This document shows positions 1 through 64,000 of a stretch of 64,000 nucleotides of DNA, piece by piece (positions within the stretch are counted from its first letter, which is position 1; each line of letters opens with the position of its first letter). The notes below the pieces were generated by a model, which was not told where the DNA came from, made no database searches, and saw only the letters and a list, made by a program, of their open reading frames with translations. Source of the stretch: a virus (Duplodnaviria > Caudoviricetes); the IMG/VR virus record IMGVR_UViG_3300021399_000014, positions 2,566 to 66,565 of that record; one strand, 5' to 3'. Both the position numbers and the translations under genes were made by a program.

Positions 1-2
1 GA

Positions 3-188
3 AAAATTCTCTATGCGATCCGGGATGATAGAATGAACTCTGTGACTGTTCTGTACAACGACGAAAAACTCGGAGGAGGGATAATCGTTGAGAACGGAAA
101 AGAGGAATGCTACATCTTCAAACCGGAAACAATAGACAAGATGATGGAGCTCATTGAAGAGATGAGAAAGAAAGGAGAAAAGATTTAA
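3..188 (+). CDS. 3' end of a hypothetical protein (5'-truncated by the window)
   Basis: Open frame from position 3 to TAA 186-188 (...ETIDKMMELIEEMRKKGEKI*), followed by a terminator hairpin. Confidence 0.5.
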   Translation, partial: KILYAIRDDRMNSVTVLYNDEKLGGGIIVENGKEECYIFKPETIDKMMELIEEMRKKGEKI

Positions 189-199
189 ATAACTAGAAG

Positions 200-229
200 G
201 AGGGCAGTATAAACAGCTGCTCTCTTTTT
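200..229 (+). terminator. Intrinsic terminator
   Basis: GAGGGCAG...CTGCTCTC stem followed by a T-run. Confidence 0.6.
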
Positions 230-335
230 ATTACACAATGTTTACAATTTATTAATTTTTTGTTAATCTATCACACGAAACGTGCCTACCGGTAGTGTGC
301 GTTCACGAATCTATGTCTAATTAGGAGGTAAGACA

Positions 336-578
336 ATGCGTGGACGTAAGAAACCAACTGACAACAGAGCTAACATCATCAAAGGGCGAGCAAGACTAAA
401 AGGATTAGGCGTATCTGATTTGGCAAAAAGATGCGGCTTATCCCAGAGTACGCTTTATCGTAAGTTAAACAGTCCAGGGGATATTTCACTACTAGAACTG
501 GAGCTTATGGATGAACTTGTGGGGTTTGATGATGCAGACCTTTTATATTTTGTTAGATGGCGGAGGTGCGAGAGATGA
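336..578 (+). CDS. XRE/Cro-like helix-turn-helix regulator
   Basis: GVSDLAKRCGLSQSTLYRKLNSPG HTH pattern; AGGAGG RBS upstream. Confidence 0.75.
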   Translation: MRGRKKPTDNRANIIKGRARLKGLGVSDLAKRCGLSQSTLYRKLNSPGDISLLELELMDELVGFDDADLLYFVRWRRCER

Positions 579-979
579 GTACCGTTATCCGCAATGAGGT
601 AAGCAAGAAGAATCCCTATTATATTTCTAAGCACAGAATGCTGGAGCTTAAACATTTTTGTTTGCAGTACGAAGAATGGAGAAAGGAACGAGCAAAGATT
701 ATGGTACTACAGAGTTACGGATATGAAAAAATTCCCGGGAAGAAAATTTCTGATAAAGTTCCAAAACTTGCAATGAGAGCTGCTATGCTTGACGGATATA
801 TGGATCTCGTGCTCAGGTGCTGTAAGGAGACTGATGCTTATATTTGGACGTGGCTGTTTGAGGCTGTAACCTGCGGGCTTAGCTATGGAACGATGGTTAC
901 GAGAGGTATTCCATGTGGTAAGGATTATTACTACGACAGGTATAGGAAGTTCTTTTGGCTGCTTGATAAAGAGAGATGA
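566..979 (+). CDS. Conserved phage protein, possible transcription regulator (LELKHFCLQY type)
   Basis: ORF track 557..979; ATG at 566 preceded by GGAGG; C-terminal GLSYGTM...YYDRYRKFFWLLD resembles ArpU/RinA-like regulators (recall). Confidence 0.5.
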   Translation: MREMSTVIRNEVSKKNPYYISKHRMLELKHFCLQYEEWRKERAKIMVLQSYGYEKIPGKKISDKVPKLAMRAAMLDGYMDLVLRCCKETDAYIWTWLFEAVTCGLSYGTMVTRGIPCGKDYYYDRYRKFFWLLDKER

Positions 980-986
980 TTATATT

Positions 987-1003
987 TTACAGCTCCTTTA
1001 GTG
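987..1003 (+). promoter_or_regulatory. Phage early promoter motif copy
   Basis: TTACAGCTCCTTTAGTG preceded by GATTATATT. Confidence 0.65.
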
Positions 1004-1033
1004 ACAATAGTGTCGCACAGTAAGGAGGTAAGC

Positions 1034-1285
1034 ATGAACTATAACATCAATGCAACGATCCCTGAGACTGAGGAAATGCCGGTTCCGGATGTATATGGAA
1101 TTGTGAGCAACGGTCACTGGGTTGATGTATTCAACAGCGGCTATGACAAAGAAAAGATCAGGCTGCATTTTGTGTCACCAAGTGGCAAACAGGTTTACGT
1201 AGACATTACGGTAAAAGAGGCGGCAGACCTCAGAAAGGAGTTGAAGGCGGCGACCACATTAGTTCTCATTGCTGAGGACTACTAA
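1034..1285 (+). CDS. Hypothetical protein
   Basis: AAGGAGG RBS then ATG 1034; own promoter and terminator. Confidence 0.7.
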   Translation: MNYNINATIPETEEMPVPDVYGIVSNGHWVDVFNSGYDKEKIRLHFVSPSGKQVYVDITVKEAADLRKELKAATTLVLIAEDY

Positions 1286-1373
1286 GTCAAAAAGGAGAGA
1301 AGGCCATCTACTACAGGTGGTCTTCCTTTTTACTTTGCTGTATACTTATTAAAAACTCAAGGAGGTCTACCAA

Positions 1374-1721
1374 ATGGAAAACGTTAAAATAGTACCTGCG
1401 ATTTGCCCTATGTGTGGAGCTAATATTACAGTAAAACCCGAAGAAGATGCTGCGGTTTGCGAATACTGTGGTAGGGCTTTTATTGTGGATAAAGCTATAG
1501 AGAAATACGATGCCAAATACCATGTCGATAAGATGGAGTACAAAGGAATAGGATATGGCTTAGGCAGAGCTAAGGAACTGGAGCAGCAGAGGAAACTGGA
1601 AGCTGAGAGATTTGACAGAGAGCACTACGAAGATAAGGCCAAGAGCAATACTAGATTCTTCATCTTATTTATGATATTTATTTTTGGGTTAATGATACTA
1701 CTGCACGTTATGATACCGTGA
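1374..1721 (+). CDS. Zinc-ribbon protein with C-terminal transmembrane helix
   Basis: CPMCGA...CEYCG motifs; hydrophobic tail FFILFMIFIFGLMILLHVMIP. Confidence 0.7.
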   Translation: MENVKIVPAICPMCGANITVKPEEDAAVCEYCGRAFIVDKAIEKYDAKYHVDKMEYKGIGYGLGRAKELEQQRKLEAERFDREHYEDKAKSNTRFFILFMIFIFGLMILLHVMIP

Positions 1722-1728
1722 TTAAGTA

Positions 1729-1746
1729 TTACAGCTCCTATAATAG
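1729..1746 (+). promoter_or_regulatory. Phage early promoter motif copy
   Basis: TTACAGCTCCTATAATAG (consensus). Confidence 0.75.
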
Positions 1747-1776
1747 CAATAATGCTGATTTAAAAGGAGGTAAATC

Positions 1777-2034
1777 ATGAAACTTTATTACGACCCGGCG
1801 GGGAATAAGCGCAAAATGAGCAACAAGTTTAGTATCATGAATATGGTAGAAGCGGAGGAATCTCGGATTATTGTGACCGGAAGTCCTGCCGACATTCGCA
1901 AAATGATGAGGGTCGCTGAACAGTATGGCTTTATCAGCTATCACTGCGGCAGACCGATCATGAGGGAAGGTAGGATTTACGAATTGCATGTCGTAGAGGG
2001 AGAGCCCTTCTACCATATCTACAGAGCAGTCTAA
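1777..2034 (+). CDS. Hypothetical protein, paralogue of 3895..4170
   Basis: Shared KKMSxxF...GSPxDIRKxxRV motif; RBS AGGAGG. Confidence 0.7.
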   Translation: MKLYYDPAGNKRKMSNKFSIMNMVEAEESRIIVTGSPADIRKMMRVAEQYGFISYHCGRPIMREGRIYELHVVEGEPFYHIYRAV

Positions 2035-2060
2035 ACGGCTGCTCATTTTTTGTTCATAAT

Positions 2061-2078
2061 TTACAGCTCCTATAATAG
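2061..2078 (+). promoter_or_regulatory. Phage early promoter motif copy
   Basis: TTACAGCTCCTATAATAG (consensus). Confidence 0.75.
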
Positions 2079-2114
2079 CAATAATGCTGATTCAAAAAAT
2101 AGGAGGAAACTATC

Positions 2115-2318
2115 ATGAAGATGAGCGAGATTATGAGGTACGCTATTTTGGGATATATTTGCGTTGCATTGGCTCTTACACTCATAGGAGTGTTTACGGA
2201 AACATTTGCATTCGCAGGATATCTTCTTGCGATAGCGCTGCCAATTACGATCTTTGGATCGGTAGCAATAATATTTGTAGAAGAGCATGAGGAGCGAAAG
2301 GAGAGCAAGGGTCTTTAA
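2115..2318 (+). CDS. Small two-TM membrane protein
   Basis: Two hydrophobic segments and a charged tail; RBS AGGAGG. Confidence 0.7.
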   Translation: MKMSEIMRYAILGYICVALALTLIGVFTETFAFAGYLLAIALPITIFGSVAIIFVEEHEERKESKGL

Positions 2319-2348
2319 CAGGCCCTTCTCTTTTTGCCTGTACCATTT

Positions 2349-2366
2349 TTACAATTCGTATAATAG
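2349..2366 (+). promoter_or_regulatory. Phage early promoter motif copy
   Basis: TTACAATTCGTATAATAG. Confidence 0.65.
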
Positions 2367-2397
2367 CAATAATGCTCATTATAAGGAGGATAACAAA

Positions 2398-2766
2398 ATG
2401 AGAAAAATGGTATATGTATTTGTAACAGTAGTTATGATGGTACTTAGCGGAATGCCGGTTATGGCAAAAGAGGCTAAGGTATCGGAAACAAAGGAAGCAA
2501 AAACATACACATTCTCGGACGTTGTGGACGAGATTGAGTATTATGGCATCGAAGAAGAGGAGACTGAGAAAATTGTCTCCGTGGTGAAGAACGTTAACTA
2601 TGACACCGAGAACTATACTCTCGTGATCACATACAGTGAGCCCACCGATGATGGATTCGAATGGATTTCCATTACAGTAGATAATGGAATGATCGAACTC
2701 CAGGCAAAGGGGCCCGGCTGCGTTGTGGCGGCAGAGTATACGTATCGGGAGTTCATGGAACAGTAA
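2398..2766 (+). CDS. Secreted or membrane-anchored acidic protein
   Basis: Signal-peptide-like MRKMVYVFVTVVMMVLSGMPVMA followed by an E/D-rich domain; RBS AAGGAGG. Confidence 0.7.
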   Translation: MRKMVYVFVTVVMMVLSGMPVMAKEAKVSETKEAKTYTFSDVVDEIEYYGIEEEETEKIVSVVKNVNYDTENYTLVITYSEPTDDGFEWISITVDNGMIELQAKGPGCVVAAEYTYREFMEQ

Positions 2767-2816
2767 TCGGCACGGAGTGAGGAGTAACAGCTCCTCCTCT
2801 TTTTTTTGCTTGTTTT

Positions 2817-2834
2817 TTACGACTCCTATAATAG
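2817..2834 (+). promoter_or_regulatory. Phage early promoter motif copy
   Basis: TTACGACTCCTATAATAG. Confidence 0.65.
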
Positions 2835-2862
2835 AAAAACTATTTTTCAAAGGAGGATTATC

Positions 2863-3162
2863 ATGAATAAAATTGATTATGAGGAACTCGTTGAAAAGCT
2901 TGAGGCTGATGGCTTTATTAAGAGAAAAGATAAAGAGGTCGTACCTCAGACGTATTTCAAGCAGGCAATCGAGCATATGAGCCAGAAGTATTCGGATAAC
3001 GACAGTGATGCTATTCACGGTGGTTGGGGTACTGCATGGGATCAGGTTCGTAAACTTGTGTTGTGGTCGTATGGGGCGCGGACTGTATCTTGGATGAAGA
3101 AAGAACAGCAGCAAGAAGCTAACGATAAGGCGATTGCATTGATCGATATCTTATTTGAGTGA
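2863..3162 (+). CDS. Hypothetical protein
   Basis: RBS AAGGAGG then ATG 2863; terminator follows. Confidence 0.7.
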   Translation: MNKIDYEELVEKLEADGFIKRKDKEVVPQTYFKQAIEHMSQKYSDNDSDAIHGGWGTAWDQVRKLVLWSYGARTVSWMKKEQQQEANDKAIALIDILFE

Positions 3163-3226
3163 TGGTTTAAAAGAAGATTCACTATCGCAGTGGGTCTTCT
3201 TTTTTCGACTTTTTGGTGTACATAAA

Positions 3227-3244
3227 TTACAGCTCTTATAATAG
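3227..3244 (+). promoter_or_regulatory. Phage early promoter motif copy
   Basis: TTACAGCTCTTATAATAG preceded by GTGTACATAAA. Confidence 0.7.
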
Positions 3245-3288
3245 AAAGATTAACTATTTATATAGTTCTTTATTATAGGAGGTAAATT

Positions 3289-3369
3289 ATGGCAATTATC
3301 ATGTTAATAGGTATCATCATCGTTCGTATTGGAATGGATGCAATTGACATCCAGGAAGGTAGAGCATGA
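3289..3369 (+). CDS. 26-aa hydrophobic peptide (not in ORF track)
   Basis: MAIIMLIGIIIVRIGMDAIDIQEGRA*, AGGAGG RBS, downstream of a promoter motif. Confidence 0.5.
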   Translation: MAIIMLIGIIIVRIGMDAIDIQEGRA

Positions 3370-3458
3370 TGAGAAGAATACTAGAAATGATATTTGGCAA
3401 AAAACTGAATAAGGAACAATTAGAATGGACTATATATCTTGAGGAATTTGGAGCATAA
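3366..3458 (+). CDS. 30-aa peptide coupled to the previous ORF
   Basis: ATGA overlap; MMRRILEMIFGKKLNKEQLEWTIYLEEFGA*. Confidence 0.4.
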   Translation: MMRRILEMIFGKKLNKEQLEWTIYLEEFGA

Positions 3459-3496
3459 CTTACGGCTCCTATTCCTTTTTGTTTTCTGATTATATT

Positions 3497-3514
3497 TTAC
3501 AGCTCCTATAATAG
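3497..3514 (+). promoter_or_regulatory. Phage early promoter motif copy
   Basis: TTACAGCTCCTATAATAG preceded by GATTATATT. Confidence 0.75.
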
Positions 3515-3547
3515 CTATAAATCTATATAAAAAAGGAGGATTTTAAA

Positions 3548-3823
3548 ATGAATAAACTTTGGAATGTTGTAATAAACCTAGTCGAGCTGAATGACGAAGA
3601 GCTATGGAAACTTTTCGCATTCTACGAGATCATAGGAGTAATCTTCTCAATAGGAGTAACGGCTATCATCGGATGGCTTGTCGGCTTAATCGTCGGCATG
3701 GCACCGTATGCTAGTGAGCTGTTCCTGGGATGGTTGATTATCTATCTCGTAGTAGAGAGGTGGTTCATAGTAGAAGTTCTGGCTGACTGGATCGAAGCGT
3801 TCAAAGGGGAATGGAAAATCTAA
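3548..3823 (+). CDS. Membrane protein
   Basis: Long hydrophobic stretches; RBS AGGAGG. Confidence 0.7.
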   Translation: MNKLWNVVINLVELNDEELWKLFAFYEIIGVIFSIGVTAIIGWLVGLIVGMAPYASELFLGWLIIYLVVERWFIVEVLADWIEAFKGEWKI

Positions 3824-3894
3824 CAAAAAGAAAGGAGTAGCGTTCAAAGAGCATCTTAACGGGTGCTCTTTGTTTTTTAAGAAAGGAGAAACAT

Positions 3895-4170
3895 ATGTAC
3901 GTACACTTATTAGGCAAGGGAACCTACAAAAAGAAGATGAGTAAGCAGTTCAAAGATGAGAGCTTCATTGATGAGGATGGTTACATCATATATTCGTTTC
4001 AGGGAAGTCCTTCAGACATTCGCAAGGTGGCCAGGGTATTCGAGAAATACTATGGAAAACGCGACGCGGACCCCCATTGGACTTATCAAGTCATGCAGCA
4101 TAACTTTTTAATGGAATACCCGATCGATATAGCTACTTGCGACGGCCGAAATTTTTATGACATTTTCTGA
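3895..4170 (+). CDS. Hypothetical protein, paralogue of 1777..2034
   Basis: Shared motif GSPSDIRKVARV; RBS GAAAGGAG. Confidence 0.7.
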   Translation: MYVHLLGKGTYKKKMSKQFKDESFIDEDGYIIYSFQGSPSDIRKVARVFEKYYGKRDADPHWTYQVMQHNFLMEYPIDIATCDGRNFYDIF

Positions 4171-4177
4171 TTATATT

Positions 4178-4194
4178 TTACAAGCCTTTTAGTG
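4178..4194 (+). promoter_or_regulatory. Phage early promoter motif copy
   Basis: TTACAAGCCTTTTAGTG preceded by GATTATATT. Confidence 0.6.
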
Positions 4195-4224
4195 ACAAAT
4201 TATGTCGCAGAGAAAGGAGAGTAT

Positions 4225-4557
4225 ATGATTGTTGAAATGTTTTGTGGAGCAGCGGCTGGAGCATACATCTATCATCATGCGAAGGGATTAGTAGAGGCGG
4301 TACGCGAGTACAAGGAGACTAAGAAGGAAACCGCTAGAAAACTTGTTGAGCTTGAGGAAGCAAAGAGGGACCTTGAGCGTTTCAAGGAACTCAAAGCTAG
4401 ACTCGAGCAGGAAAAAGAGAAAGCGGAATCCGACAGACGATTCTACAGGAACTTGTGTAAGCAAGCGGATCTGTTAATCTCGCCAGATGATAGCATAGAG
4501 GAGTTCAGCCGCAAGATGAAAAAAGACAATACTGTAATAGTATTCGACGAAGACTAA
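4225..4557 (+). CDS. Small N-anchored coiled-coil protein
   Basis: GAAAGAYIY hydrophobic start, then a K/E-rich heptad region; RBS GAAAGGAG. Confidence 0.7.
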   Translation: MIVEMFCGAAAGAYIYHHAKGLVEAVREYKETKKETARKLVELEEAKRDLERFKELKARLEQEKEKAESDRRFYRNLCKQADLLISPDDSIEEFSRKMKKDNTVIVFDED

Positions 4558-53966: not shown

Positions 53967-55172
53967 ATGGGACTGATTTGGCATGTACCTGGCTTCTCCA
54001 AATACGAGAATGATACTCGTTACGGAGATTGCCAGTTTTTTATTTACACATATCCAAAGACGGGCCATAAACTCTTCTTTGCGATTGACGGTTACGATAA
54101 AGATGGGGACGACAGATTCATTGAAGATCTGTATCTCTTTAAGGCCAACAAAGATTCTGAAATTTGGGTAGAGATCTCCCATGGGCATTACGACCACCTT
54201 AAGGGTATCCGTACGGCCATTAATCACAAGACAAACGGCAAGTATACCTTTAACATAACGCGCCTTTACATGCAGGATCCGGCTTCTCTTAAGGTTGGCC
54301 TTAGAGATAATAAGGGCTCTGGCTATGTTAGGAATGCTATCAATACGCTTTACGAGATTAAAGCCGAGGCTGAAGCAAGAGGAATCAAGGTTATTTTCGT
54401 TAAGAACATGCAAAAGATTAAGTTCGGCGATACGACTATTCAATTCTTCAGAGAGCAGCCAACGAGAGTAGAAGATAGTGACCGCTACGGAGACACTTAC
54501 CTCAATCACGGCTCTATCATCACGTGGTTTCCTGACCTTAGTTACATCACCTCTGGCGACGGCCCCAAGAGACTAGACCAAATCTGTGATAAGTACGGCC
54601 TCGATCCTATATTTGTCAAAGGTCCTCATCACGGCAACATCCTTATCAGGGTCTGTGCTACCTGGCTTAAGAATCACGGATGTCTTTACTATTGGGACAA
54701 CGACCTGTCTAAGGATATTACAGGCTTCCTTGAGACGGGAAGAGAAGATGCAATTGCTGTCGGCATGGAGGTTCTTAACTGTATTGGTGACATCAATGGC
54801 GTAGCTCATAACGGCAAGTTCTATGTATACAAGAACGGTAAGCTCGCATTCAGCTATGACTGCTCTTACAAAGGACCGAAGACCCTCATCCAGAAGCCTA
54901 CAGTCACTCTTGTAAGGATGATCTTAAGAGGCAAGTACAGCACCGGTGACCGCAGGATTTCTAAGATTCTGGCTATCGGTTATGCTCCTCTTGAAGCTCA
55001 GAAGTATGTCGACCGGGTCATCAATACGGCGAAAGGTATACTAAGCGGACGCCTCGACTATGGCCAGAACAAAGAGCGCATCAAAAAGATCGATGAGGTT
55101 TTCGGCGGAAACTACGGCCAGCTCGTGCAGGATTATATTAATGTACTCGCTGGAGTAAAGGAGAACGTATGA
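53967..55172 (+). CDS. Metallo-beta-lactamase-fold hydrolase with C-terminal CW_7-like cell-wall-binding repeats
   Basis: SHGHYDH (HxHxDH), GPHHG; tail VRMILRGKYSTGDRR...GY / AKGILSG...YGQNKER...VQDYIN. Confidence 0.7.
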   Translation: MGLIWHVPGFSKYENDTRYGDCQFFIYTYPKTGHKLFFAIDGYDKDGDDRFIEDLYLFKANKDSEIWVEISHGHYDHLKGIRTAINHKTNGKYTFNITRLYMQDPASLKVGLRDNKGSGYVRNAINTLYEIKAEAEARGIKVIFVKNMQKIKFGDTTIQFFREQPTRVEDSDRYGDTYLNHGSIITWFPDLSYITSGDGPKRLDQICDKYGLDPIFVKGPHHGNILIRVCATWLKNHGCLYYWDNDLSKDITGFLETGREDAIAVGMEVLNCIGDINGVAHNGKFYVYKNGKLAFSYDCSYKGPKTLIQKPTVTLVRMILRGKYSTGDRRISKILAIGYAPLEAQKYVDRVINTAKGILSGRLDYGQNKERIKKIDEVFGGNYGQLVQDYINVLAGVKENV

Positions 55173-56698
55173 GTTTAAACGGCTGTGACGGTGCTAGTTA
55201 TCAGTGGGACATCGAACCCGCAAAGATGACTACTACCGACTTTTTTATATTCAAGGTCTCTCAGGGTAAGTGGTATGTGAATCCCTATTTCGAGAAGCAA
55301 TACGCGAAAGCCAAAAAAGCAGGTAAACTTCTCGGTGCATATTGCTATGGCGAAGGTAAAGATCCTGTCGGCGAGGCACGGTACTTCGTCAAACTGCTCG
55401 GGAATAAAATAGGAGAGTGTATCCTGGCTTTTGATCATGAAGGCAGAGACAACCGCATATTTGGCAAGGTAGAAGAGGTCGAGTACGTAAGGAAATTTGT
55501 GGAAGAAGTTCACAGACTTACCGGCGTATGGCCTCTTCTTTATGTCTCTAAGGGAGTTACCCGTCGTCGAGATTGGTCTTCCGTAGCAAAGAATGTCAAG
55601 CTCTGGTGCGCTCAATACGCAAGCGACCGTAATACCAATTACCAATCAGAACCTTGGACAGATGACTATGGCTTTGGCGCGTGGAAGAAAGACACTATCA
55701 GACAGTATTCTTCTCACGGCAGAGTAAGAGGATATTCGCGAGATCTTGATGTCGACCTTGCATACCTTACGGCGGAAGAGTGGATGAAGCTTGCAAGACC
55801 TGAGTCTATGGGCGCAGTCGTTGAGTCCAATATTCCTGTCGTGACGGATGCTGTGCCTACTACCGAGTGGTCTGATTATATTTACAAAGTCACATCTCCT
55901 GTTCTCATCTCAAACAGCGGCTCTGATGAGAGAGGAGCTTACAAGGGCGGACAGGCAGGAGATCAGACCGGTAAAGAATGGCGCATAAGAGACTGGTACA
56001 ACAGGCCATGGAACTGCGTGCTCCGTCATCCATTAGCCGAGGTCAGGGCATGCATTGCTACAATGGCAGTTAAAGCGGCTAAGAACGACCGCATCGGCTA
56101 TGACCAGTCGCAGAGGGACAGCTATGGCGAGGCTCTTGCTAAGGCTGACTACGACCCCAGTAAGATCACAAAGAACGTAGAGTCGGACTGCTCTAAAGGC
56201 GTTATCGACAATGTTAGGGCAACCGGCAACGTTCTAGGCATCGATAAGCTTAAGAAACTGGACGCTACATATACGGGTAATATGCGTGCTGCCTTCAAAG
56301 CTGCTGGCTTCCAGGTCCTTACCGATCCTAAGTACCTTACAAGTGGCGACTATTTGCTTGCTGGAGATATTCTGCTCAACGATGCTCACCATACCTGCAC
56401 GGTAATTACCAATGGTTCAAAATCAGCAGGACAACAGGCCACACCTTATGAAGAGAATATGGAGGAATACGAGATGCTGCCTCTTCTTAAGAAAAATCGC
56501 AAAGGCAATGCGGTAAGTCATCTTCAGTGGATGCTTAATCATGCCTCGTATAAGGATAAAAAGACACTGACTGAGGACGGGGAGTTCGGCTACAAGACCC
56601 TCAATCAGGTTATTTATTTCCAGAAGTCACACGGTCTGTCTCCCGATGGTGAAGTAGGTCCTAAGACCTGGAAGAAGCTTTATGATGTAGTATTCTAA
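55169..56698 (+). CDS. Endolysin: GH25 muramidase + Cys/His peptidase-like domain + PG-binding domain
   Basis: DGASYQ...KVSQG...DHE...QYSS..G...DLD GH25; SDCS...GDILL...HHT second domain; GNAVSHLQWML...DGEFG...FQKSHGLSPDGEVGPKTW. Confidence 0.85.
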   Translation: MSLNGCDGASYQWDIEPAKMTTTDFFIFKVSQGKWYVNPYFEKQYAKAKKAGKLLGAYCYGEGKDPVGEARYFVKLLGNKIGECILAFDHEGRDNRIFGKVEEVEYVRKFVEEVHRLTGVWPLLYVSKGVTRRRDWSSVAKNVKLWCAQYASDRNTNYQSEPWTDDYGFGAWKKDTIRQYSSHGRVRGYSRDLDVDLAYLTAEEWMKLARPESMGAVVESNIPVVTDAVPTTEWSDYIYKVTSPVLISNSGSDERGAYKGGQAGDQTGKEWRIRDWYNRPWNCVLRHPLAEVRACIATMAVKAAKNDRIGYDQSQRDSYGEALAKADYDPSKITKNVESDCSKGVIDNVRATGNVLGIDKLKKLDATYTGNMRAAFKAAGFQVLTDPKYLTSGDYLLAGDILLNDAHHTCTVITNGSKSAGQQATPYEENMEEYEMLPLLKKNRKGNAVSHLQWMLNHASYKDKKTLTEDGEFGYKTLNQVIYFQKSHGLSPDGEVGPKTWKKLYDVVF

Positions 56699-56725: not shown

Positions 56726-57094
56726 ATGTTTATAAACTACAATGCAAATCCTTCGGGCAAGGCTACGGGGGACTGTGTAATAAGGGCTATTTCCACGATT
56801 ACTGGTCTTCCGTGGCGAACCGTTCACTGGGAACTTGCCATGCTTAGCAATGACGTATACCAGATGATGGACGATAATCCGGTCTGGCACGAATATTTGC
56901 GCAGGCTAGGTTTTAATATTCGTATGGTGGAATGGCCTTGCTCGAGGATTAAAGATTTTTGCAAGTGCTTTCCTTATGGCTGTTATATTCTCGGCACCGG
57001 GAAGCACGTTGTAGCAGTAATTGACGGCGACTATTACGATACCTGGGATTCCGGTAACGAGCTCGCCGTCTTTTATTGGAAATTGGAGGGATAG
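56726..57094 (+). CDS. Papain-like (C39-type) peptidase-like protein
   Basis: GDCVIRAI...HVVAVIDG...DTWDS giving a Cys-His-Asp order. Confidence 0.55.
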   Translation: MFINYNANPSGKATGDCVIRAISTITGLPWRTVHWELAMLSNDVYQMMDDNPVWHEYLRRLGFNIRMVEWPCSRIKDFCKCFPYGCYILGTGKHVVAVIDGDYYDTWDSGNELAVFYWKLEG

Positions 57095-57109: not shown

Positions 57110-57442
57110 ATGCCTACAAATTATGGACAGTATCAGGCGCCGCAGACAATTACTATGTTTACGGTGCATGGAGAAGAAGGGGCAAATGCGTTTCCCATCG
57201 GTCCAGGCCAGAAAGTTACCCTGATCGACGCTGACAACGCTGTTATTTACGTAAAAAGCGCTAATAACTTTGGCCAGACACTCCCGCTCGAAGTATACGA
57301 CATGGTCTACAGACAGCCTCCTCAGCCTGAAGTGCCTAACGCGGCTCCTTCGATGAGTAAGGACGAGATTGTCACTACTGTGAACGATGCTGTTAAGGCA
57401 GCTATGCAGAAGTATTTTCCACAGATTAACTTTGGCGAGTAA
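57110..57442 (+). CDS. Uncharacterised protein, module gene A
   Basis: GAAAGGAG RBS; VHGEEGANAFPI...IYVKS pattern. Confidence 0.7.
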   Translation: MPTNYGQYQAPQTITMFTVHGEEGANAFPIGPGQKVTLIDADNAVIYVKSANNFGQTLPLEVYDMVYRQPPQPEVPNAAPSMSKDEIVTTVNDAVKAAMQKYFPQINFGE

Positions 57443-57453
57443 GGAGGTAGAGT

Positions 57454-57693
57454 ATGGGTAATCCTTTATTTGGTAATGGCGGTTTTGGTGGAGGTATGCC
57501 TCAGAACAATATGTTTGGCGCGTTCGGCGGGATGATGAACTTCATGAACCAGTTCAATCAGTTCAGAAGCGGCCTTCAAGGTAATCCTCAACAAATGGTA
57601 CAAAGTATGATTCAAAATGGACAAATGAGCAATGAGCAGTTTAACCAGCTCAGCAATATGGCCAATCAGATCATGCCGTTCATAAAGAGATAA
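57454..57693 (+). CDS. Gly/Met/Gln/Asn-rich low-complexity protein, module gene B
   Basis: MGNPLFG...NPQQMVQSMIQNGQMSNEQFNQL. Confidence 0.7.
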   Translation: MGNPLFGNGGFGGGMPQNNMFGAFGGMMNFMNQFNQFRSGLQGNPQQMVQSMIQNGQMSNEQFNQLSNMANQIMPFIKR

Positions 57694-57704: not shown

Positions 57705-57866
57705 GTGAATACTTCCAATGTTATTGTAGGCGTAGTCAGTAACGGTGATTACGGTAATACTTCTAACGCATTTGGCATAAAGTGGGACGGCACCTTTGTG
57801 TTTGCGAATGGTATAGAGATCACACCGGCACAGTTTGCGAAGCTACTGGCTCTGCTAGGCAACTAG
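57705..57866 (+). pseudogene. Orphan copy of the C-terminus of the SHAEG fibre
   Basis: SNAFGIKWDGTFVFANGIEITPAQFAKLLALL versus SNAFAIKWDGTLVFANGTEIAPAQFAALLALL in 52884..53801. Confidence 0.65.
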
Positions 57867-57888
57867 AAAAAGACTAGGAGAATTAATT

Positions 57889-59646
57889 ATGGCTATATTA
57901 GACGAACTTAAAGCAAAAGCTAATGGCGCTGCTGATCAGGCTAACAACATCCAGGAAGCCGTGTCCATGATGGAGTTTGGTGGTGGAAGCTCTGGCGGTG
58001 GAGCAGGCTTGGAAGAGATTACCTATGCCGAGCTGAAAGTAAAGCGTGACGGCGGTCAGCTGACACCTGGCGGTCAATATCGTATCACGGACTATGTTTG
58101 TACAACTACGCAAGCTGAATCTCAGGCAGTATCGCATCCGTTCGACATAATCGTAGTTGCTGACAGTGCATCCGTCCTCAATGAGAATGCCAGAGCATGT
58201 CTGCATGACGGGGATGACTACTACTCTGCGCAAGACCATCAGGCAAACCTTGAGGCGTGGGAGCTGAAGTACTGTATCGACAATGATGATAATCGGTTCG
58301 CATGGGCAGATACTGTAAATGGTAAGGGCGTCATCTATTACATGAAAGACGATCGGAACAACGAATGCCCGTATGACTTCAAACAGATCCAGTTCAAGAG
58401 ATATCCGATCACGGAATGTGCAAAAGTTCCGAGTCTTGTCGGGAAATATGCAGCAATTAACCGAAGCGAGGATATAACCGGCATTGATGAGCAGAACCCG
58501 GTCTGGTGTTATACCTTCTCTGTGAGTGATCAGGAGGCTACATCTGTTATTTATGATGGGACAATTGCACCACTTAGCGATGATGGGTTAGATCACGGTT
58601 GTTTTGTGTTAGACAATAAAATAAACCCGTTGTTTGACTATAAAGATTTAGAAGAAGGCTATGGACAAAAGGTTTTATATTTAAACAATATTGTTTTTAC
58701 CTGTTATTTTGGATCCAGCTGCTCCATTAATACCTTTGGAGATAACTGCGGCTCCAATACATTCGGAGATAGCTGCGGCTCCAATACCTTTGGAGATAAC
58801 TGCTACTCCAATACCTTTGGATATGGCTGCGGCTCCAATACATTCGGAGATAACTGCGGCTCCAATACATTCGGAGATAACTGCGGCTCCAATACATTCG
58901 GAGATAGCTGCGGCTCCAATACCTTTGGAGATAGCTGCGGCTACAATACCTTTGGAGATAGCTGCGGCTACAATACCTTTGGAGATAGCTGCGGCTCCAA
59001 TACCTTTGGATATGGCTGCGGCTCCAATACCTTTGGATATGGCTGCTACTCCAATACCTTTGGAGATAACTTCGGCTCCAATACCTTTGGAAATGGCTGT
59101 AACGAAAACACCTTTGGAAATAACTGCGGCTCTAACACCTTTGGGGATAACTGCGCCTCTAACACCTTTGGAAATAGCTGCGGCTCTAACACCTTTGGGG
59201 CTAACTGCTTATCTAACACCTTTGGAAATGGCTGTCACGAAAACACCTTTGGAAATAACTGCTACTCTAACACCTTTGGGGCTAACTGCTTCTCTAACAC
59301 CTTTAGGGATGACTACTCCTTTAACACCTTTGGGGATAATTGCGCCTTTAACACCTTTGGGGATAACTGCTACTCTAACACCTTTGGAAATAGCTGCGGC
59401 TCTAACACCTTTGGGGCTAACTGCTTCTCTAACACCTTTGGGGATGACTGCAAGTATGTCGACCTTGCAGCGGGGCTAAGCTCAGCGAATTCAAAACGAT
59501 ACTACCATGTTCTTGACGGCGTACATGGAACGCAAAACTCTCACATTTCCATCACAGGCACAAACGGAAACAATTTCGAGACCTATGTCGGCATGAACAG
59601 CAGTGGTGTACTCAAGACTTGGGTACCGGCGGACCTTGCAACGTAA
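57889..59646 (+). CDS. Fibre/receptor-binding-like protein with 27 x 9-aa beta-helix repeats
   Basis: ITYAELK...GGQYRITDY N-domain; xxCxxNTFG repeats. Confidence 0.7.
   Translation: MAILDELKAKANGAADQANNIQEAVSMMEFGGGSSGGGAGLEEITYAELKVKRDGGQLTPGGQYRITDYVCTTTQAESQAVSHPFDIIVVADSASVLNENARACLHDGDDYYSAQDHQANLEAWELKYCIDNDDNRFAWADTVNGKGVIYYMKDDRNNECPYDFKQIQFKRYPITECAKVPSLVGKYAAINRSEDITGIDEQNPVWCYTFSVSDQEATSVIYDGTIAPLSDDGLDHGCFVLDNKINPLFDYKDLEEGYGQKVLYLNNIVFTCYFGSSCSINTFGDNCGSNTFGDSCGSNTFGDNCYSNTFGYGCGSNTFGDNCGSNTFGDNCGSNTFGDSCGSNTFGDSCGYNTFGDSCGYNTFGDSCGSNTFGYGCGSNTFGYGCYSNTFGDNFGSNTFGNGCNENTFGNNCGSNTFGDNCASNTFGNSCGSNTFGANCLSNTFGNGCHENTFGNNCYSNTFGANCFSNTFRDDYSFNTFGDNCAFNTFGDNCYSNTFGNSCGSNTFGANCFSNTFGDDCKYVDLAAGLSSANSKRYYHVLDGVHGTQNSHISITGTNGNNFETYVGMNSSGVLKTWVPADLAT
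58714..59442 (+). repeat. Tandem array of 27 units of 27 bp
   Basis: Unit consensus GATAACTGCGGCTCCAATACCTTTGGA; unit ends fall at 58740+27n. Confidence 0.9.
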
Positions 59647-59743
59647 TTGAAACACAAAAACGGCGCCGACAATGCCATGGTGTGAGGCTTAATGTTTGGG
59701 GCGATAATACGAGTGCCGTTCATAAAGAGATAAGGAGCAGAAT

Positions 59744-59956
59744 ATGGCAGAATTTGATACTCCTCAGAGCAGAGTAGAAGCCCTACTTCAAAATGCTCTT
59801 GGCGGAACTAACGAGGTTAATCCTGAGAGTAGAGTGGAAGAACTCCTCGAAAAACTAGACAAGACTCTGGAAGACATGGGTATCGGCACTAGAACTAATG
59901 TTGATACCGTTATAGCGGACAATAAAATTCAGTTCTTCACGAAAGGAGGCGACTGA
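59744..59956 (+). CDS. Small protein upstream of the esterase fibre
   Basis: AAGGAG RBS; internal repeat PQSRVEALL / PESRVEELL. Confidence 0.65.
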   Translation: MAEFDTPQSRVEALLQNALGGTNEVNPESRVEELLEKLDKTLEDMGIGTRTNVDTVIADNKIQFFTKGGD

Positions 59957-59958
59957 GT

Positions 59959-61674
59959 ATGGCTACGATGGAAGGTCTTTATATTAATGGCGAAAAAGCC
60001 AAATTCCTTCCGGAAAACATCATCGAAGGCGACGTCGGCGCTTATGCAGAGGCTGTAGGAGCTGGTGTTGAAGCTTGGATGGACGAGCATCTCGATCCAG
60101 CAGGAAGCGTCGTAATCGATAAAAACCTGTCTATTGAAGGCGCTGCGGCTGACGCTAAAGCTACTGGCGATGCAGTTAATGAGTTAAAGAGTGCCTTAAA
60201 TAACAGAACAGGAATCGCATTTACAGAGACGGAAGGCAAATACGTATCAGGTACAGGACACTTTTATGACAATACTAATTATAATTGTACCAATTATATT
60301 TCGGTACATAATCTTTCGGATGTATATGTAAAAGCGTATTCAGGTAGTGGGTGCAACTATGAATTTTATGACTCAGATCATATCTTTATTAGCGGCGGTC
60401 ATACACCTGACAACAACAATAATCTTGTTTCTCTCCCTGTCCCAAATGGTGCATATTATTTTAGAATATCGTACTACGCAAATAGAGGAATGCAGGTATT
60501 TGTCGGAAACATACCTAACACCATAACAAAAATCAACGATGCTATATCAGAAAGAAAAAGCAAGTATATCACGCTTAATGATTTAGATTGGATTGATGGG
60601 TATTATCTGGCAGTTTCGGCAGATATAAAGTATGAAAATACAGGCTTCAAATATTCCGAAAAAATACCGCTTGAATACATGAATTTGCATAGCATCTCTT
60701 TGCACGGCAGAGCAAGTGGTGTAGCATCTATTGTATTTTATGATGAACGTCAGATGTTTATATCTTCTGTTGTAGGGGTATTTATTGAAAGTGTGGAAAT
60801 TCCATCTAACGCAAAATATATGGCTATATGCGTTGAAAAATCAAAAACGAATGACCACGCAGAATTTATAGTAGATGACTTCACAATAACTAATTTTGTA
60901 GGGCTTTTAAAAGAAAAACAGCTTGATAACGTGCCATTGGAGCAAATCATACAGACGGGCGGTATGTGCAAAATATTCCGCACTATCGGTGTTGTGGGGG
61001 ATAGTCTTTCAAGCGGTGAAATGGCATATGGAAACGCTTCTGATGAATCCACAACACAATTTGTTGACATGTATGAATATAGTTGGATTCAGTACATGGC
61101 GAGATACTGCGGAAATGAAGCATATAATTTTTCAGCAGGTGGATTAAGCACAAGAACATTTTTCACAGCACAAAGCGGAAAGTTTTACAACGAATTAATG
61201 GATGGTCAGCATAAATGTCAGGCATATTTTATTGCATTGGGACACAATGACAAAAACCAGAATGTTCCAATAGGCTCTATCAATGATATTAATCTAAGCA
61301 ATCCTGATTTAAACAATGATACATATTATGGAAATTATGGGAAAATTATTTCAAAAATAAAGACTGTTCAGCCAAACGCAAAGATTTTCTGTGTTTGCAT
61401 GAAAAACAAAACCCAGTTCGGGGCATACAATGTGGCGATTAAAAACATTGCCAATCTTTTTGCGACAAATGTGTATGTGCTTGACATGGAAGCGTATGCT
61501 CCACCATTGGAATCATGGGAATACACTCAAGGGCACGGCAATACTATGGGGTACTTAAATTATTCATATCAAATTTCATCGTATGTTGATTTTTTGATTA
61601 GGAAAAATCCTTCTGAATTTAAGTATGTGCAGTTTATTGGCACAGAATATGACGGATATATCCCGAACGCATAA
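59959..61674 (+). CDS. Fibre-like N-terminal anchor fused to carbohydrate-binding-like domains and an SGNH/GDSL hydrolase
   Basis: AADAKATGDAVNELKSAL junction; GDSLS (block I), LGHND (block III), terminal GHGN; sharp GC drop after about 60190. Confidence 0.7.
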   Translation: MATMEGLYINGEKAKFLPENIIEGDVGAYAEAVGAGVEAWMDEHLDPAGSVVIDKNLSIEGAAADAKATGDAVNELKSALNNRTGIAFTETEGKYVSGTGHFYDNTNYNCTNYISVHNLSDVYVKAYSGSGCNYEFYDSDHIFISGGHTPDNNNNLVSLPVPNGAYYFRISYYANRGMQVFVGNIPNTITKINDAISERKSKYITLNDLDWIDGYYLAVSADIKYENTGFKYSEKIPLEYMNLHSISLHGRASGVASIVFYDERQMFISSVVGVFIESVEIPSNAKYMAICVEKSKTNDHAEFIVDDFTITNFVGLLKEKQLDNVPLEQIIQTGGMCKIFRTIGVVGDSLSSGEMAYGNASDESTTQFVDMYEYSWIQYMARYCGNEAYNFSAGGLSTRTFFTAQSGKFYNELMDGQHKCQAYFIALGHNDKNQNVPIGSINDINLSNPDLNNDTYYGNYGKIISKIKTVQPNAKIFCVCMKNKTQFGAYNVAIKNIANLFATNVYVLDMEAYAPPLESWEYTQGHGNTMGYLNYSYQISSYVDFLIRKNPSEFKYVQFIGTEYDGYIPNA

Positions 61675-61730
61675 ATGGACTTAAAGCACCATTTAAACCA
61701 GTAACGCATCAGCTAAAAAGAGGTTACGAG

Positions 61731-62009
61731 ATGGACTGGATTTTCTGCCATTTAATCGGTGACTATGTTTTGCAAATAGATTACATCGCAAAAACAAAAG
61801 GCGAGAACTGGTATCATCTGCTCGTCCACTGTTTGCTTTACATACTGCCGTTTCGCATTGTATACGGTGCGGATTGGAGACTTGTTATATTGCTTGTCTC
61901 TCACATCGTCATCGATGCGCTCAAGGCAAGATATAAAAAGCTAACATACATACAAGACCAAGCGTTACATTATGTGACCGTGTTTTGGCTTTATGTGTTC
62001 GTTAAATAA
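61731..62009 (+). CDS. DUF3307-like membrane protein
   Basis: HLIGDYVLQ...LLVHCLLY...HIVID...DQALH. Confidence 0.7.
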   Translation: MDWIFCHLIGDYVLQIDYIAKTKGENWYHLLVHCLLYILPFRIVYGADWRLVILLVSHIVIDALKARYKKLTYIQDQALHYVTVFWLYVFVK

Positions 62010-62027
62010 AGAACATTTCAATCAACT

Positions 62028-62056
62028 AGAGGACTCTATCACAGGGTCCTCTTTTT
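62028..62056 (+). terminator. Intrinsic terminator
   Basis: AGAGGAC...GTCCTCT + T-run. Confidence 0.6.
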
Positions 62057-62171
62057 AATGCAGAAAGAAGGTGATTCCATTGGGCTAGTTTCACCTACTG
62101 CTGGATTATATTTATTAAAACTTAATAAGGAATAACAACTATGAATATTTACATTAAGAGGAGGATAGATT

Positions 62172-62972
62172 ATGTCTCTTATGGATTCTAACAACAACGG
62201 AATGGTAATGCCTGTTTCTCCTATGTATGGTGGTGGACAGGGCGGATTTGGTTACGGCTCGTATGGCGATGGCCTTTTCTGGATTATTATTCTGTTCCTC
62301 TTCGCTGCGATGAACGGCAACGGCTGGGGTAACAACGCTGGAAACGGCTATAACGGCATCCTTCCATTCATGATGAATCAGAATACCAATAACGATGTCC
62401 AGCGCGTGGTCGATCAGCAGTCTGTTATGAATGGTATCTCTGCTCTGTCTGCGGCTCAGGCTAATGGCTTTGCGAATGCCGAGATTTCTAGATGCAACAT
62501 GCTTTCCGGTCTTACAGGCCAGCTCAATAGCATCGCCATGACTCAGCAGAATTGCTGCTGTGAGAACAGACAGGCAGTTGCAGATCTTAAGTACACCATG
62601 GCCCAGGAAGCGGCAGCGACAAGAGCTAATACCGACGCCAAGGTTCAGGGCGTAATGGATAAACTCTGCCAGCTTGAGATGGATGGTATGAGACAGAACT
62701 ATGAGAATCGCATCGCAACTCTTACAGCCAATTACGACAATCGTATCTCCGGCATGCAGAACACGATCGATTCCCTTCGCACCATGAATTCCGACGCGAG
62801 ATTCGATGCTTCTCAGAATGCTCAGACAGCAGCGATCCAGGCCGGTCAGAGAACCCTCGCCAATGAGATCGAGCAGTACGTTCTTCCGACAGCAAAGCCT
62901 GCATACATCGTTCAGAACCCTAACTGCTGCGCTCCTCAGACATTCGGCTGTGGCTGCGGCGCTGTAGCATAA
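62172..62972 (+). CDS. Gly-rich TM + coiled-coil Cys-rich protein (QNCCCE), module gene C
   Basis: GG..GDGLFWIIILFLFA; N/Q-rich heptads; QNCCCEN; C-terminal NCC...GCGCG. Confidence 0.75.
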   Translation: MSLMDSNNNGMVMPVSPMYGGGQGGFGYGSYGDGLFWIIILFLFAAMNGNGWGNNAGNGYNGILPFMMNQNTNNDVQRVVDQQSVMNGISALSAAQANGFANAEISRCNMLSGLTGQLNSIAMTQQNCCCENRQAVADLKYTMAQEAAATRANTDAKVQGVMDKLCQLEMDGMRQNYENRIATLTANYDNRISGMQNTIDSLRTMNSDARFDASQNAQTAAIQAGQRTLANEIEQYVLPTAKPAYIVQNPNCCAPQTFGCGCGAVA

Positions 62973-62981
62973 GGAGGCCCA

Positions 62982-63374
62982 ATGGAAGATATCTATCAGT
63001 TAATCTCGCAGTTTCATTTTCGTAACGAACTGTGGGTGTTGTTCATTCCGCTCGGGCTTATGGCCATCGACGTTTTGACCGGCATCGTTAAAGCATGGGC
63101 TCATAACGATTTCCAGTCTGCGATCATGAGATCTGGTCTTGCTAAAAAAGCTGGTGAGATCATGATTCTTGTGGTTGGAGAGCTGATGTCTTATGGCCTT
63201 ATGCTCCCCAACATCATCATGAACTGTGTGAGTTTCTACATTATATTTATGGAAGTCATGTCTATTCTGGAAAATGCAGACGAACTTGGTATCCCCGTTC
63301 CTAAGTTTGTTAAGGACGTTATCAACAACGTGGACGATACACTCCAGCATGGCGACAAGAAAGATGAGGAATAA
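62982..63374 (+). CDS. Holin (Cph1/TcdE-like, phage holin 4 type)
   Basis: DVLTGIVKAW...SAIMRSGLAKK...EVMSILENADELGIPVPKF. Confidence 0.8.
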   Translation: MEDIYQLISQFHFRNELWVLFIPLGLMAIDVLTGIVKAWAHNDFQSAIMRSGLAKKAGEIMILVVGELMSYGLMLPNIIMNCVSFYIIFMEVMSILENADELGIPVPKFVKDVINNVDDTLQHGDKKDEE

Positions 63375-63377
63375 AAT

Positions 63378-63815
63378 ATGGCAGCAGAATATGGAAACGT
63401 TCAGGACCAGACTGTTGAAGATAACCAGAACGTGCTCTTCGATAATATTATTTCTTGCGCCAGAGGCTTAATTCTTCACGGTAATGGTTCTGGTATATTT
63501 ACCATTAAGCCTCAGGTCACAAACCCGTGCGCGAGATACGTGAGGCTTCTTGTACTGTTTCACGGCAACGTAAGTATACCTGAAGGCGGCACACCAGGAC
63601 CCATTTCGTTTGCAATTTCCATCAACGGAGAGGCCGACCAGACAGTTGTAGCTACGACAACTCCTACTGTGGCGGAAGCCCTGTTTAATATCGGACTTGC
63701 AAAGCTTATAACGATTCCGGTTGGTTGCTGCACGCAGATCGCGGTGAAGAATATTTCTGGGGTGGCGGTCGATGTCAACAAACCTCACTTGATTATCATG
63801 CCGCCTACCAACTAA
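63378..63815 (+). CDS. Beta-rich BclA-CTD / C1q-like protein, module gene D
   Basis: Jelly-roll-like alternating strands, FAISINGE, VGCC..IAVKN. Confidence 0.55.
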   Translation: MAAEYGNVQDQTVEDNQNVLFDNIISCARGLILHGNGSGIFTIKPQVTNPCARYVRLLVLFHGNVSIPEGGTPGPISFAISINGEADQTVVATTTPTVAEALFNIGLAKLITIPVGCCTQIAVKNISGVAVDVNKPHLIIMPPTN

Positions 63816-63830
63816 GGGAGGGATTATATT

Positions 63831-64000
63831 ATGTCGATGACACAGGAACAGATGAGAACAATCAAAGAATTCGGCGAGATGCTGTGCAAACAGATTGATA
63901 AGATCAACAAGAAAGGCGACATCACTCCTGACGAGCTCCAGAGAATGGATAAAGCCGTTGATATTATCAAGGACATCTCGGTGATCTGCGCTATGGAGGA
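63831..64000 (+). CDS. Helical protein, module gene E (3'-truncated by the window)
   Basis: GGGAGG RBS; MSMTQEQMRTIKEFGEMLCKQIDKINKKGDITPDELQRMDKAVDIIKDI, open to the window end. Confidence 0.6.
   Translation, partial: MSMTQEQMRTIKEFGEMLCKQIDKINKKGDITPDELQRMDKAVDIIKDISVICAME

Follow-up and report, generated by a model that had tools for sequence, protein, structure and literature searches.

The nearest worked-out system to the one described here is the exosporium assembly in which BclA or F-Anchor sits on ExsF (PDB 1wck, 7r1m, 8d02, 9h38, and 9h3d). There, the first 19 residues of BclA are removed, and the ExsF trimer accommodates a Pro-rich peptide in its clefts (PMC12357932). A second point of comparison is the double-glycine leader LSXXELXXIXGG, which is cut by C39 proteases (PMC1538908). 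Here we describe a viral locus that bears likenesses to both, found in a 64,000-nucleotide (nt) stretch of Caudoviricetes DNA (“the window”; bases 2566 to 66565 of the 66,565-bp IMG/VR record IMGVR_UViG_3300021399_000014). It encodes a predicted papain-fold peptidase-like protein and five further proteins, termed A to E; together, the six genes are a single copy of a phage cassette that is widespread and mobile and that lies in the late-gene region. An earlier sequence-only reading of the window had grouped the same genes into a module split around inserted cassettes, and all of the open reading frames (ORFs) that it listed (the peptidase-like gene, A to D, a holin gene, and E) are present where it placed them.

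The cassette was defined by a survey of 126 loci fetched through C or D homologues, the ORFs of which were searched with iterated profiles of the window proteins. The loci fetched through C comprised 80 IMG/VR loci and 40 contigs of metagenome-assembled genomes (MAGs), with an alignment of eight C sequences as the query. The profiles detected the peptidase in 112 of the 126 loci, A and D in 109 each, B in 90, and E in 114. In approximately 100 of these loci the six families keep a colinear arrangement, on one strand and with peptidase-A-B-C-D-E as the dominant order, and the genes are mostly a few bases apart or overlapping; the gap between C and D is 3 to 20 nt in most loci. In one group of divergent loci the order is instead A-(B)-C-(D)-E-peptidase. 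In five records the fetched stretch lacked the peptidase, and in all five it is encoded elsewhere in the same record. This gene-neighbourhood survey bears out the earlier grouping, as the genes co-occur far above chance. A chance gene cluster was therefore rejected, the co-occurrence across 126 loci being far beyond what chance would give, and ordinary tail or lysis parts were rejected because none of the six proteins matches any such family.

The same arrangement is found in GenBank, where tblastn located adjacent C and D genes in 15 phage records. Butyrivibrio phage Ceridwen and Dulem virus 33 carry all six genes in colinear order, at 27 to 45% identity and with no holin gene between C and D. 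The C family comprises 701 clusters at 50% identity and >5,000 at 90% identity (E 0.001), and the clusters nearest to C in the ESM Atlas are all viral and hypothetical. Five of the six cassette proteins belong to PHROG families of unknown function (Table 1), and E has no confident PHROG match. There was no significant Pfam, NCBIfam, or PDB sequence-profile match for the peptidase, A, C, D, or E and none in Pfam or NCBIfam for B. No cassette gene has a name or a Pfam family, and no description of the cassette or of DUF7211 was found in the literature. The cassette is very common in gut and rumen phages of very different size and genome layout, yet it is unstudied; being this common and conserved, it is likely to be important for phage fitness in the gut.

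Carriers extend well beyond the relatives of the window phage. C homologues are also encoded by Bacteroides phage C3_41T2LP, which was isolated on B. uniformis, by at least 15 crAss-like records, in which the GenBank labels are “spike protein/glycoprotein” or “viral fiber,” and by two viruses whose records give Methanomassiliicoccales as the host. The C profile scores a Bacteroides protein at E 1e-50 and a crAss protein at E 1e-44. In the Bacteroides and crAss-like phages, the neighbouring genes follow the same layout and encode Cys-bearing beta-rich, beta-plus-helix, and small Arg/Tyr/Asp-rich proteins. The carrier hosts thus span Firmicutes, Bacteroidota, and, by record annotation, archaea. 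The crAss-like phages are the most abundant human gut viruses, and Butyrivibrio is a monoderm, non-sporulating genus. Ceridwen, which grows on Butyrivibrio fibrisolvens, has been observed only in lytic growth (PMC7372960). With Ceridwen and C3_41T2LP as two cultured carriers, the cassette is directly testable. In one of the Methanomassiliicoccales viruses (L154, NC_092586.1; positions 1 to 4259), the C homologue (phrog_16490) lies just 3' of genes for a reverse transcriptase and a tail protein, an arrangement that looks like a diversity-generating retroelement.

Among the cassette proteins, D gives the clearest structural prediction. Its AlphaFold2 model, built from a 60-sequence alignment, has a predicted local distance difference test score (pLDDT) of 94.6 and a predicted template modelling (pTM) score of 0.88, and it identifies D with high confidence as a ten-strand jelly roll of the TNF/C1q/BclA type. 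The model aligns with the C-terminal domain of F-BclA (9h38) with a VIA-align Z score of 16.3 over 124 residues (root mean square deviation, 2.2), followed by BclA (1wck; Z 15.3), EDA-A1 (14.5), and ExsFA (13.7), and the BclA/C1q-type fold expected for D from the sequence is thus upheld. The top Foldseek match is ExsFA/BxpB (7r1m; E 3e-7; TM score, 0.72; probability, 1.00). Lower-ranked matches (Z 9 to 13) are cyanophage tail-fibre domains, the Sf6 tail-needle knob, PRD1 P5, and heads of lactococcal receptor-binding proteins, and TNF-fold lectins are also among the structural matches. BFVD holds many stand-alone viral proteins with the size and fold of D. Cys27, Cys117, and Cys118 are invariant in the alignment. 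D had no match in Pfam (E ≤ 0.1, including PF18573, BclA_C), in NCBIfam, or among PDB sequence profiles, and no longer or fused form of it was found, which is weak evidence.

The product of the gene at 56726 is, according to its model, a papain-fold (peptidase clan CA-type) enzyme that resembles C39 peptidases and is not a C39 member. Residues D16, C17, R20, H94, and D105 are invariant in 59 sequences. The model has a pLDDT of 95.9, and all 50 of its top 50 VIA matches have a papain-like cysteine-hydrolase fold. The Z scores for staphopain (7.5), the C39 domains of PCAT1 (7.2) and ComA (7.1), Josephin (6.9), and LahT (6.8) do not single out C39, since staphopain stands above the C39 domains. 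The protein had no match to Pfam C39 (PF03412) at E ≤ 0.1, a profile search against PDB sequences returned no C39 chain, and the residues conserved before Cys17 are Asn6, Asn8, and Pro9, not the C39 oxyanion Gln. The earlier description of this protein as C39-like therefore stands with regard to the fold, the invariant Cys and His, and the presence of C39 domains among the best matches but fails with regard to C39 membership by sequence. The enzyme stands alone, with no ABC transporter nearby.

Some cassettes have another protein in place of the cysteine peptidase. In Bacteroides phage C3_41T2LP and crAss-like cr116_1, the C homologue is followed by a protein of 131 to 164 amino acids (aa) with an HExxH motif, annotated in GenBank as a PolyVal metallopeptidase in the case of C3_41T2LP; the swap was recognized from that annotation and from HExxH motifs read by eye. 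The small HExxH ORFs of four divergent MAG loci matched no Pfam family. Because an unrelated peptidase type replaces the cysteine enzyme, it is proteolysis, rather than other papain-fold chemistry, that would be needed, and this activity is probably an integral part of the cassette. A transglutaminase or deamidase role, which is attractive given the Gln-rich partner proteins, was rejected because an HExxH protein replaces the enzyme in other cassettes.

C consists of a leader-like N terminus (residues 1 to approximately 23), a Gly-rich linker, an apolar core, a proline-free stretch, and a Pro/Cys tail. The apolar run, LFWIIILFLFAAM, has a 13-residue core (residues 35 to 47; nt 62274 to 62312) with Gly-rich flanks. 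The proline-free region is 162 aa long and includes a CCC at residues 128 to 130, in the motif C-C-C-E-N-R. The tail (residues 237 to 266; nt 62880 to 62969) ends in CC...CGCG and is the best-conserved part of the family, with the pattern E-Q-Y-x-x-P-x-P-x-P-A-Y-I-V-Q-N-P-N-C-C...G-C-G-C. The Gly-rich N terminus, apolar run, CCC, and CC...CGCG tail previously read from this gene are all present. Nearly all of 118 full-length C proteins have the apolar core, with a median length of 13 residues. The numbers of Cys residues in the C tail and in D are uncorrelated (Spearman 0.14; P = 0.17), and the best PDB profile match of C to HA2 was not significant (E 0.94).

The N termini of C fall into conserved types, M-x-M-P-V-x-P...G-G and L-S-x-x-D-(I/V)-A-A-V-x-G-(G/N). 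The C protein of the window carries the commoner type (M-V-M-P-V-x-P-M-x-G-G), with hydrophobic residues at −4 and −7 before the Gly-Gly, and the L-S-x-x-D type matches the spacing of the LSXXELXXIXGG leader. A relaxed leader pattern occurs in 88 of the 118 C proteins, compared with 122 of 1,420 background ORFs. An NCBIfam search with ten leader-bearing N termini returned no bacteriocin or exosporium leader model. It is reasonable, judging from these patterns, to regard the leader as a putative substrate of the peptidase, and a leader-like N terminus of the kind that such a peptidase could remove, as had been suggested for C, is present as a sequence pattern.

The three remaining cassette products are low-complexity proteins, rich in P/Q/Y (A), Q/N/M (B), and R/G/Y/S (E). 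A has a core motif, W-V-x-G-E...Y-P-V-x-P-G, but no PDB or Pfam match and nothing usable in the ESM Atlas. B proteins average 17% Q, 11.5% N, and 9% M across the family. E has helical ends around an Arg/Gly/Tyr/Ser/Met-rich middle. PDB sequence-profile searches with A and E gave no relative of known structure.

Compared with the exosporium, the cassette is similar in that D has the same jelly-roll fold as the proteins of the BclA/ExsF assembly and that C, a fibrous-looking protein with a leader and a conserved Pro-rich tail, is encoded beside a peptidase and a trimer-fold protein. By analogy, C may be trimmed by the peptidase and docked on D trimers through one or other of its conserved Pro-rich ends. 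However, there is no detectable sequence similarity and no match of C to the exosporium leader model (TIGR03720). C lacks the collagen repeats of BclA, and D is a stand-alone protein of 145 aa, not the end of a collagen-like stalk. All of the cassette genes are viral and lie in the late region, one carrier infects a non-sporulating host, and C homologues extend to Gram-negative hosts. The likeness to the C39 exporters (ComA, PCAT1, and LahT) consists of the papain fold with a Cys-His-Asp arrangement, the presence of C39 domains among the best matches (Z 6.8 to 7.2), the L-S-x-x-(D/E)-hydrophobic-x-x-hydrophobic-x-G-G spacing in part of the C family, and a Gly-rich hydrophobic stretch after the putative cut site. 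In contrast to those systems, a conserved Asn-Pro-Asn stretch takes the place of the expected oxyanion Gln, Pfam C39 is not matched, the enzyme has no ABC transporter, and the putative substrate has 266 aa and is not a peptide. In addition, most C proteins bear the M-x-M-P-V-x-P leader, and some cassettes use an HExxH protein instead.

A further likeness, to spanins (Rz-type i-spanins) and class I fusion proteins, is an analogy of architecture only. As in those proteins, a hydrophobic head in C is followed by long helical regions and conserved cysteines, and, as with spanins, the cassette lies in or near lysis genes in a sizeable minority of phages. Unlike spanins, the Firmicutes cassettes have no outer-membrane lipoprotein partner, most hosts are monoderm, the hydrophobic core is borderline, and C gives no significant heptad signal; there is no homology to either group, and no enveloped particle is involved. 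In fusion proteins the hydrophobic head is exposed by proteolytic priming, and the order of parts in C (removable leader, greasy head, helices, and cysteines) recalls such proteolytically primed membrane-active proteins.

Always encoded on the late strand, the cassette varies in its position in the genome: it may lie behind an endolysin, ahead of an integrase, amid fibre genes, or near connector, TerL, or head-closure genes. In approximately 25 loci a Phage_connect_2 head-tail connector gene immediately precedes it; in one phage group it lies between that gene and TerL or head-closure genes, and the neighbours in this connector-linked group are multi-copy genes with an N-terminal L-x-H-H-G...K-W-G motif (weak DUF7211 match). 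In approximately 20 loci, including the window, it is at the end of the late region beside an integrase. Of 120 loci, 31 have a recognized lysis gene inside the cassette or no more than 1 kb away, and 52 have one within 4 kb; these counts are lower bounds, because recognition of lysis genes is incomplete. We estimate this proximity at roughly twice that expected for random positions. The cassette is a late module, autonomous and mobile, and is partly linked to lysis genes.

Two features mark the window copy. The B-C junction is usually 40 to 220 nt, whereas here it is interrupted by 4,478 bp. Inserts of 0.7 to 7.6 kb of other genes, encoding tail-fibre-like proteins, SGNH esterases, homing endonucleases, or whole lysis cassettes, are present at this junction in 17 loci, so that it is a recurrent insertion site and the usual weak point of the cassette. 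The near relatives L010, L011, and L008 have inserts of 2.1, 3.3, and 4.0 kb with differing content at the same junction, between cassette genes that are 75 to 90% identical to those of the window. Because near relatives hold different inserts there, the description of the module as split around inserted cassettes is correct: it is conserved elsewhere and interrupted here. The second feature is the holin gene at 62982 (PF05105, 79.6 bits against a cutoff of 22.2; TIGR01593, 60.3 bits against 40.2), which is the sole recognized holin gene of the phage and is separated by 9 nt from C and 3 nt from D. A holin gene between C and D is found only in the close relatives of this phage (L006 to L012). 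One of the same family (holin_4_1) directly follows E in four other loci, and in three of these (L081, L092, and L094) the cassette sits among head and packaging genes. With a holin in or beside the cassette in only 11 of 126 loci, the export through the holin that had been envisaged is not general. The window thus shows that fibre cassettes are swapped at the B-C junction and that the operon can recruit a holin gene.

The reading that we favour, although we hold it somewhat short of even confidence, is that the cassette makes a membrane-acting rod-and-knob device at the end of infection. The papain-fold peptidase would trim the leader-like N terminus of C, and trimming would expose or activate the Gly-flanked greasy segment. 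Helical, Cys-rich C would then pair with trimers of the BclA/ExsF-type knob D, probably via its Pro/Cys tail, with the low-complexity proteins A, B, and E as helpers or partners. The finished structure would most likely act on a lipid membrane late in infection, in lysis, release, or exclusion. A membrane target is favoured because the hosts share little except a lipid membrane. The apolar core of nearly all C proteins, the lysis genes close to part of the loci, and the holin_4_1 gene that follows E even in a head-module position also speak for a link to membranes and lysis. That the cassette represents a new class of machine, in which a protease-primed, fusion-protein-like membrane effector (C) is capped by a TNF-fold trimer (D), we regard as unlikely, if less so than most of the alternatives discussed below. 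If true, such a machine would be common to gut viruses of Firmicutes, Bacteroidota (including the crAss-like phages), and perhaps methanogenic archaea and would act on lipid membranes in release or entry independently of the type of host wall.

Several observations weigh against the favoured reading. Only 15 of 118 leaders conform to the strict double-glycine pattern, and the relaxed count is raised by the Gly-rich context; a lineage without the leader helix (L123/L124) still has the peptidase, the best fold scores of which are middling (Z 7.5). The apolar core of C is short, Lys and Arg are nearly absent from its flanks, and the Kyte-Doolittle maximum over 19 residues has a family median of 1.47, which falls short of the customary cutoff of 1.6, so that the core may not be a true transmembrane anchor. 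Of the transmembrane segment read earlier in C, the apolar, Gly-flanked run is present, whereas its transmembrane status is borderline. The long coiled coil read in the same protein was not borne out: a Fourier test found no significant 3.5-residue heptad periodicity over the whole helical region of C, and the signal was marginal in some 42-residue windows (reached by 18 to 68 of 1,000 shuffles). None of the six proteins has a signal peptide, which leaves the presence of D outside the cell unexplained. More than half of the loci have no recognized lysis gene nearby, and fibre genes often flank or split the cassette, which a virion part would fit equally well.

Attachment to the virion is only slightly less likely than membrane action. 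The cassette could encode an appendage or decoration, with C as the shaft and D as the knob at its far end, borne on the neck, tail, or capsid, put together with the aid of the peptidase, and serving gut adhesion or stability and not specific host-receptor recognition. We consider this possible but somewhat doubtful. TNF-like knobs on helical or collagen shafts are a standard design of viral fibres, D matches phage fibre domains (Z 9 to 13) and TNF-fold lectins, and the cassette invariably lies in the late structural/lysis region, where fibre genes often flank or interrupt it; its position directly after the Phage_connect_2 gene in approximately 25 loci, the match of the inserted 571-aa protein to a PHROG named neck protein, and its presence in gut and rumen viruses of very different hosts point the same way. 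On the other hand, a greasy, Gly-flanked segment is unusual for a virion fibre, D is conserved and not hypervariable like receptor-binding tips, and movement among phages of differing architecture, into differing positions, is hard to reconcile with a part that docks on a specific virion protein. The lack of any fused shaft-knob form is weak evidence in the same direction. The hydrophobic head on C would also suit superinfection exclusion or another host-directed accessory role, in which a membrane-tethered complex blocks the entry of other phages or adsorption to debris. The mobility of the cassette and its location here and in approximately 20 loci at the end of the late region next to an integrase, the usual place of accessory genes, agree with such a role. 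Yet virulent Ceridwen retains the full cassette (PMC7372960), many phages have it inside head or fibre modules, and six conserved genes including a protease exceed the needs of known exclusion systems, which together make this role improbable.

We give less weight still to a bacteriocin-like weapon, in which leader-bearing, membrane-active C would be activated by the C39-like peptidase and freed at lysis against competitors. The double-glycine-like leader, Gly-rich hydrophobic segment, C-terminal Cys pairs, and C39-like peptidase fold all recall such systems (PMC1538908), but neither an ABC exporter nor an immunity gene is present, and C, at 266 aa with a helical body, is long. The cassette is, moreover, exclusively viral, strictly links C to D, E, A, and B, and is conserved across phages of unrelated hosts, and the weapon is accordingly a very improbable reading. 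Least probable of all, to the point that we scarcely credit it, is the decoration of host spores by an exosporium-like, disulphide-linked appendage, which the sequence-only reading had listed among the possible targets. Although the nearest solved folds to D are the exosporium proteins BclA, F-BclA, and ExsFA/BxpB, and compositions rich in Cys, Tyr, and Gly are reminiscent of spore-coat proteins, the TNF/C1q fold is widespread among viruses, and no sequence-level link to spore families was found in Pfam or NCBIfam. A spore role is unlikely because a virulent phage of Butyrivibrio fibrisolvens carries the whole cassette (PMC7372960). It is likewise disfavoured by a Bacteroides phage and crAss-like phages in which C homologues have cassette-like neighbours.

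The features of the window that bear upon the cassette are listed in Table 1.

Table 1. Positions of the cassette genes and adjoining features in the 64,000-nt window
Feature	Position	Strand	Match or remark
Endolysin (GH25 + ELLD + PG_binding_1)	55169..56698	+	Pfam E 2e-24 to 2e-60; immediately 5' of first cassette half
Cassette gene 1, papain-fold Cys-His-Asp peptidase-like (predicted), stand-alone, 122 aa	56726..57094	+	phrog_3754, PHROG E 2.7e-24
Cassette gene 2 (A), 110 aa, Pro/Gln/Tyr-rich N terminus and small conserved core	57110..57442	+	phrog_21718
Cassette gene 3 (B), 79 aa, Gln/Asn/Met/Gly-rich	57454..57693	+	phrog_22984
Inserted block splitting the cassette	57705..62009	+	ORF content, Pfam, PHROG
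Terminator-like hairpin (10-bp stem, then T run) between inserted block and gene C	62028..62052	+	
Strong ribosome-binding site of gene C, AAGAGGAGG, just 5' of ATG	62156-62164	+	
Cassette gene 4 (C), 266 aa	62172..62972	+	phrog_16490
Holin (Phage_holin_4_1 / TIGR01593) between C and D	62982..63374	+	PF05105 E 2.4e-22
Cassette gene 5 (D), 145 aa, stand-alone TNF/C1q/BclA-type jelly roll (predicted)	63378..63815	+	phrog_20016
Cassette gene 6 (E), 5' part	63831..64000, continuing at record bases 122-398	+	

Because the record has a 121-bp direct terminal repeat, its map is circular, and the right edge of the window marks where the assembly was cut. Gene E runs past position 64000 into the first 398 bases of the record and is intact, encoding 148 aa. 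It is followed on its 3' side by two small genes with fibre-type N-terminal helices and then by a tyrosine integrase gene on the opposite strand; because of this integrase, the phage (approximately 66 kb) is judged to be temperate. The closest relatives of its TerL are in MAGs labelled Ruminococcus, Oscillospiraceae, and Clostridia, one of them inside a 273-kb contig. An endolysin gene lies upstream of the peptidase gene in many relatives as well.

The block inserted at the B-C junction contains a 53-aa ORF and genes for a 585-aa repeat protein, a 70-aa ORF product, and a 571-aa GDSL/SGNH protein with matches to the neck protein and tail fiber protein PHROGs. The block closes, just 5' of the hairpin and C, with a gene for a DUF3307 membrane protein (61731 to 62009; phrog_2470, labelled moron/membrane protein). 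The 585-aa protein (57889 to 59646) contains 26.8 copies of a 27-bp unit (83% matches; array at 58729 to 59451), which encodes the nine residues N-T-F-G-D-N-C-G-S with one Cys per turn, and has 34 Cys in total. It matches no Pfam or PHROG family and looks like a Cys-ladder beta-solenoid.

The start of the 585-aa protein (57889 to 57993) is shared with that of a 147-aa protein encoded 3' of E (record bases 414 to 518; L003). This 35-residue N-terminal helix is identical at 29 of 35 positions and is followed in both proteins by a Gly/Ser linker and unrelated bodies. A second common start motif, S-R-V-E-x-L-L, is found in small genes at window position 59744 and at L003 position 870. The shared N termini resemble docking peptides that interchangeable fibre or whisker modules would have in common. 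A comparable pattern occurs in approximately 31 related phages (L015 to L097), in which two to six genes per locus start with L-x-H-H-G-I-x-G-Q-K-W-G-x-R-R-Y-Q-N-x-D-G-S-L-T and continue into unrelated bodies. These genes (weak DUF7211 match) cluster around TerL and directly 3' of E (e.g., L032, 4224 to 6964, and L027, 588 to 3524), and the sequence-only reading places the same leader at window positions 32529 and 33677. HNH homing-endonuclease genes also lie repeatedly in or beside the cassette, several of them between cassette genes (e.g., L005, 7169 to 7720; L106, 5105 to 5683; and L114, 5251 to 5712), and two clusters of them account for 10 and 8 loci.

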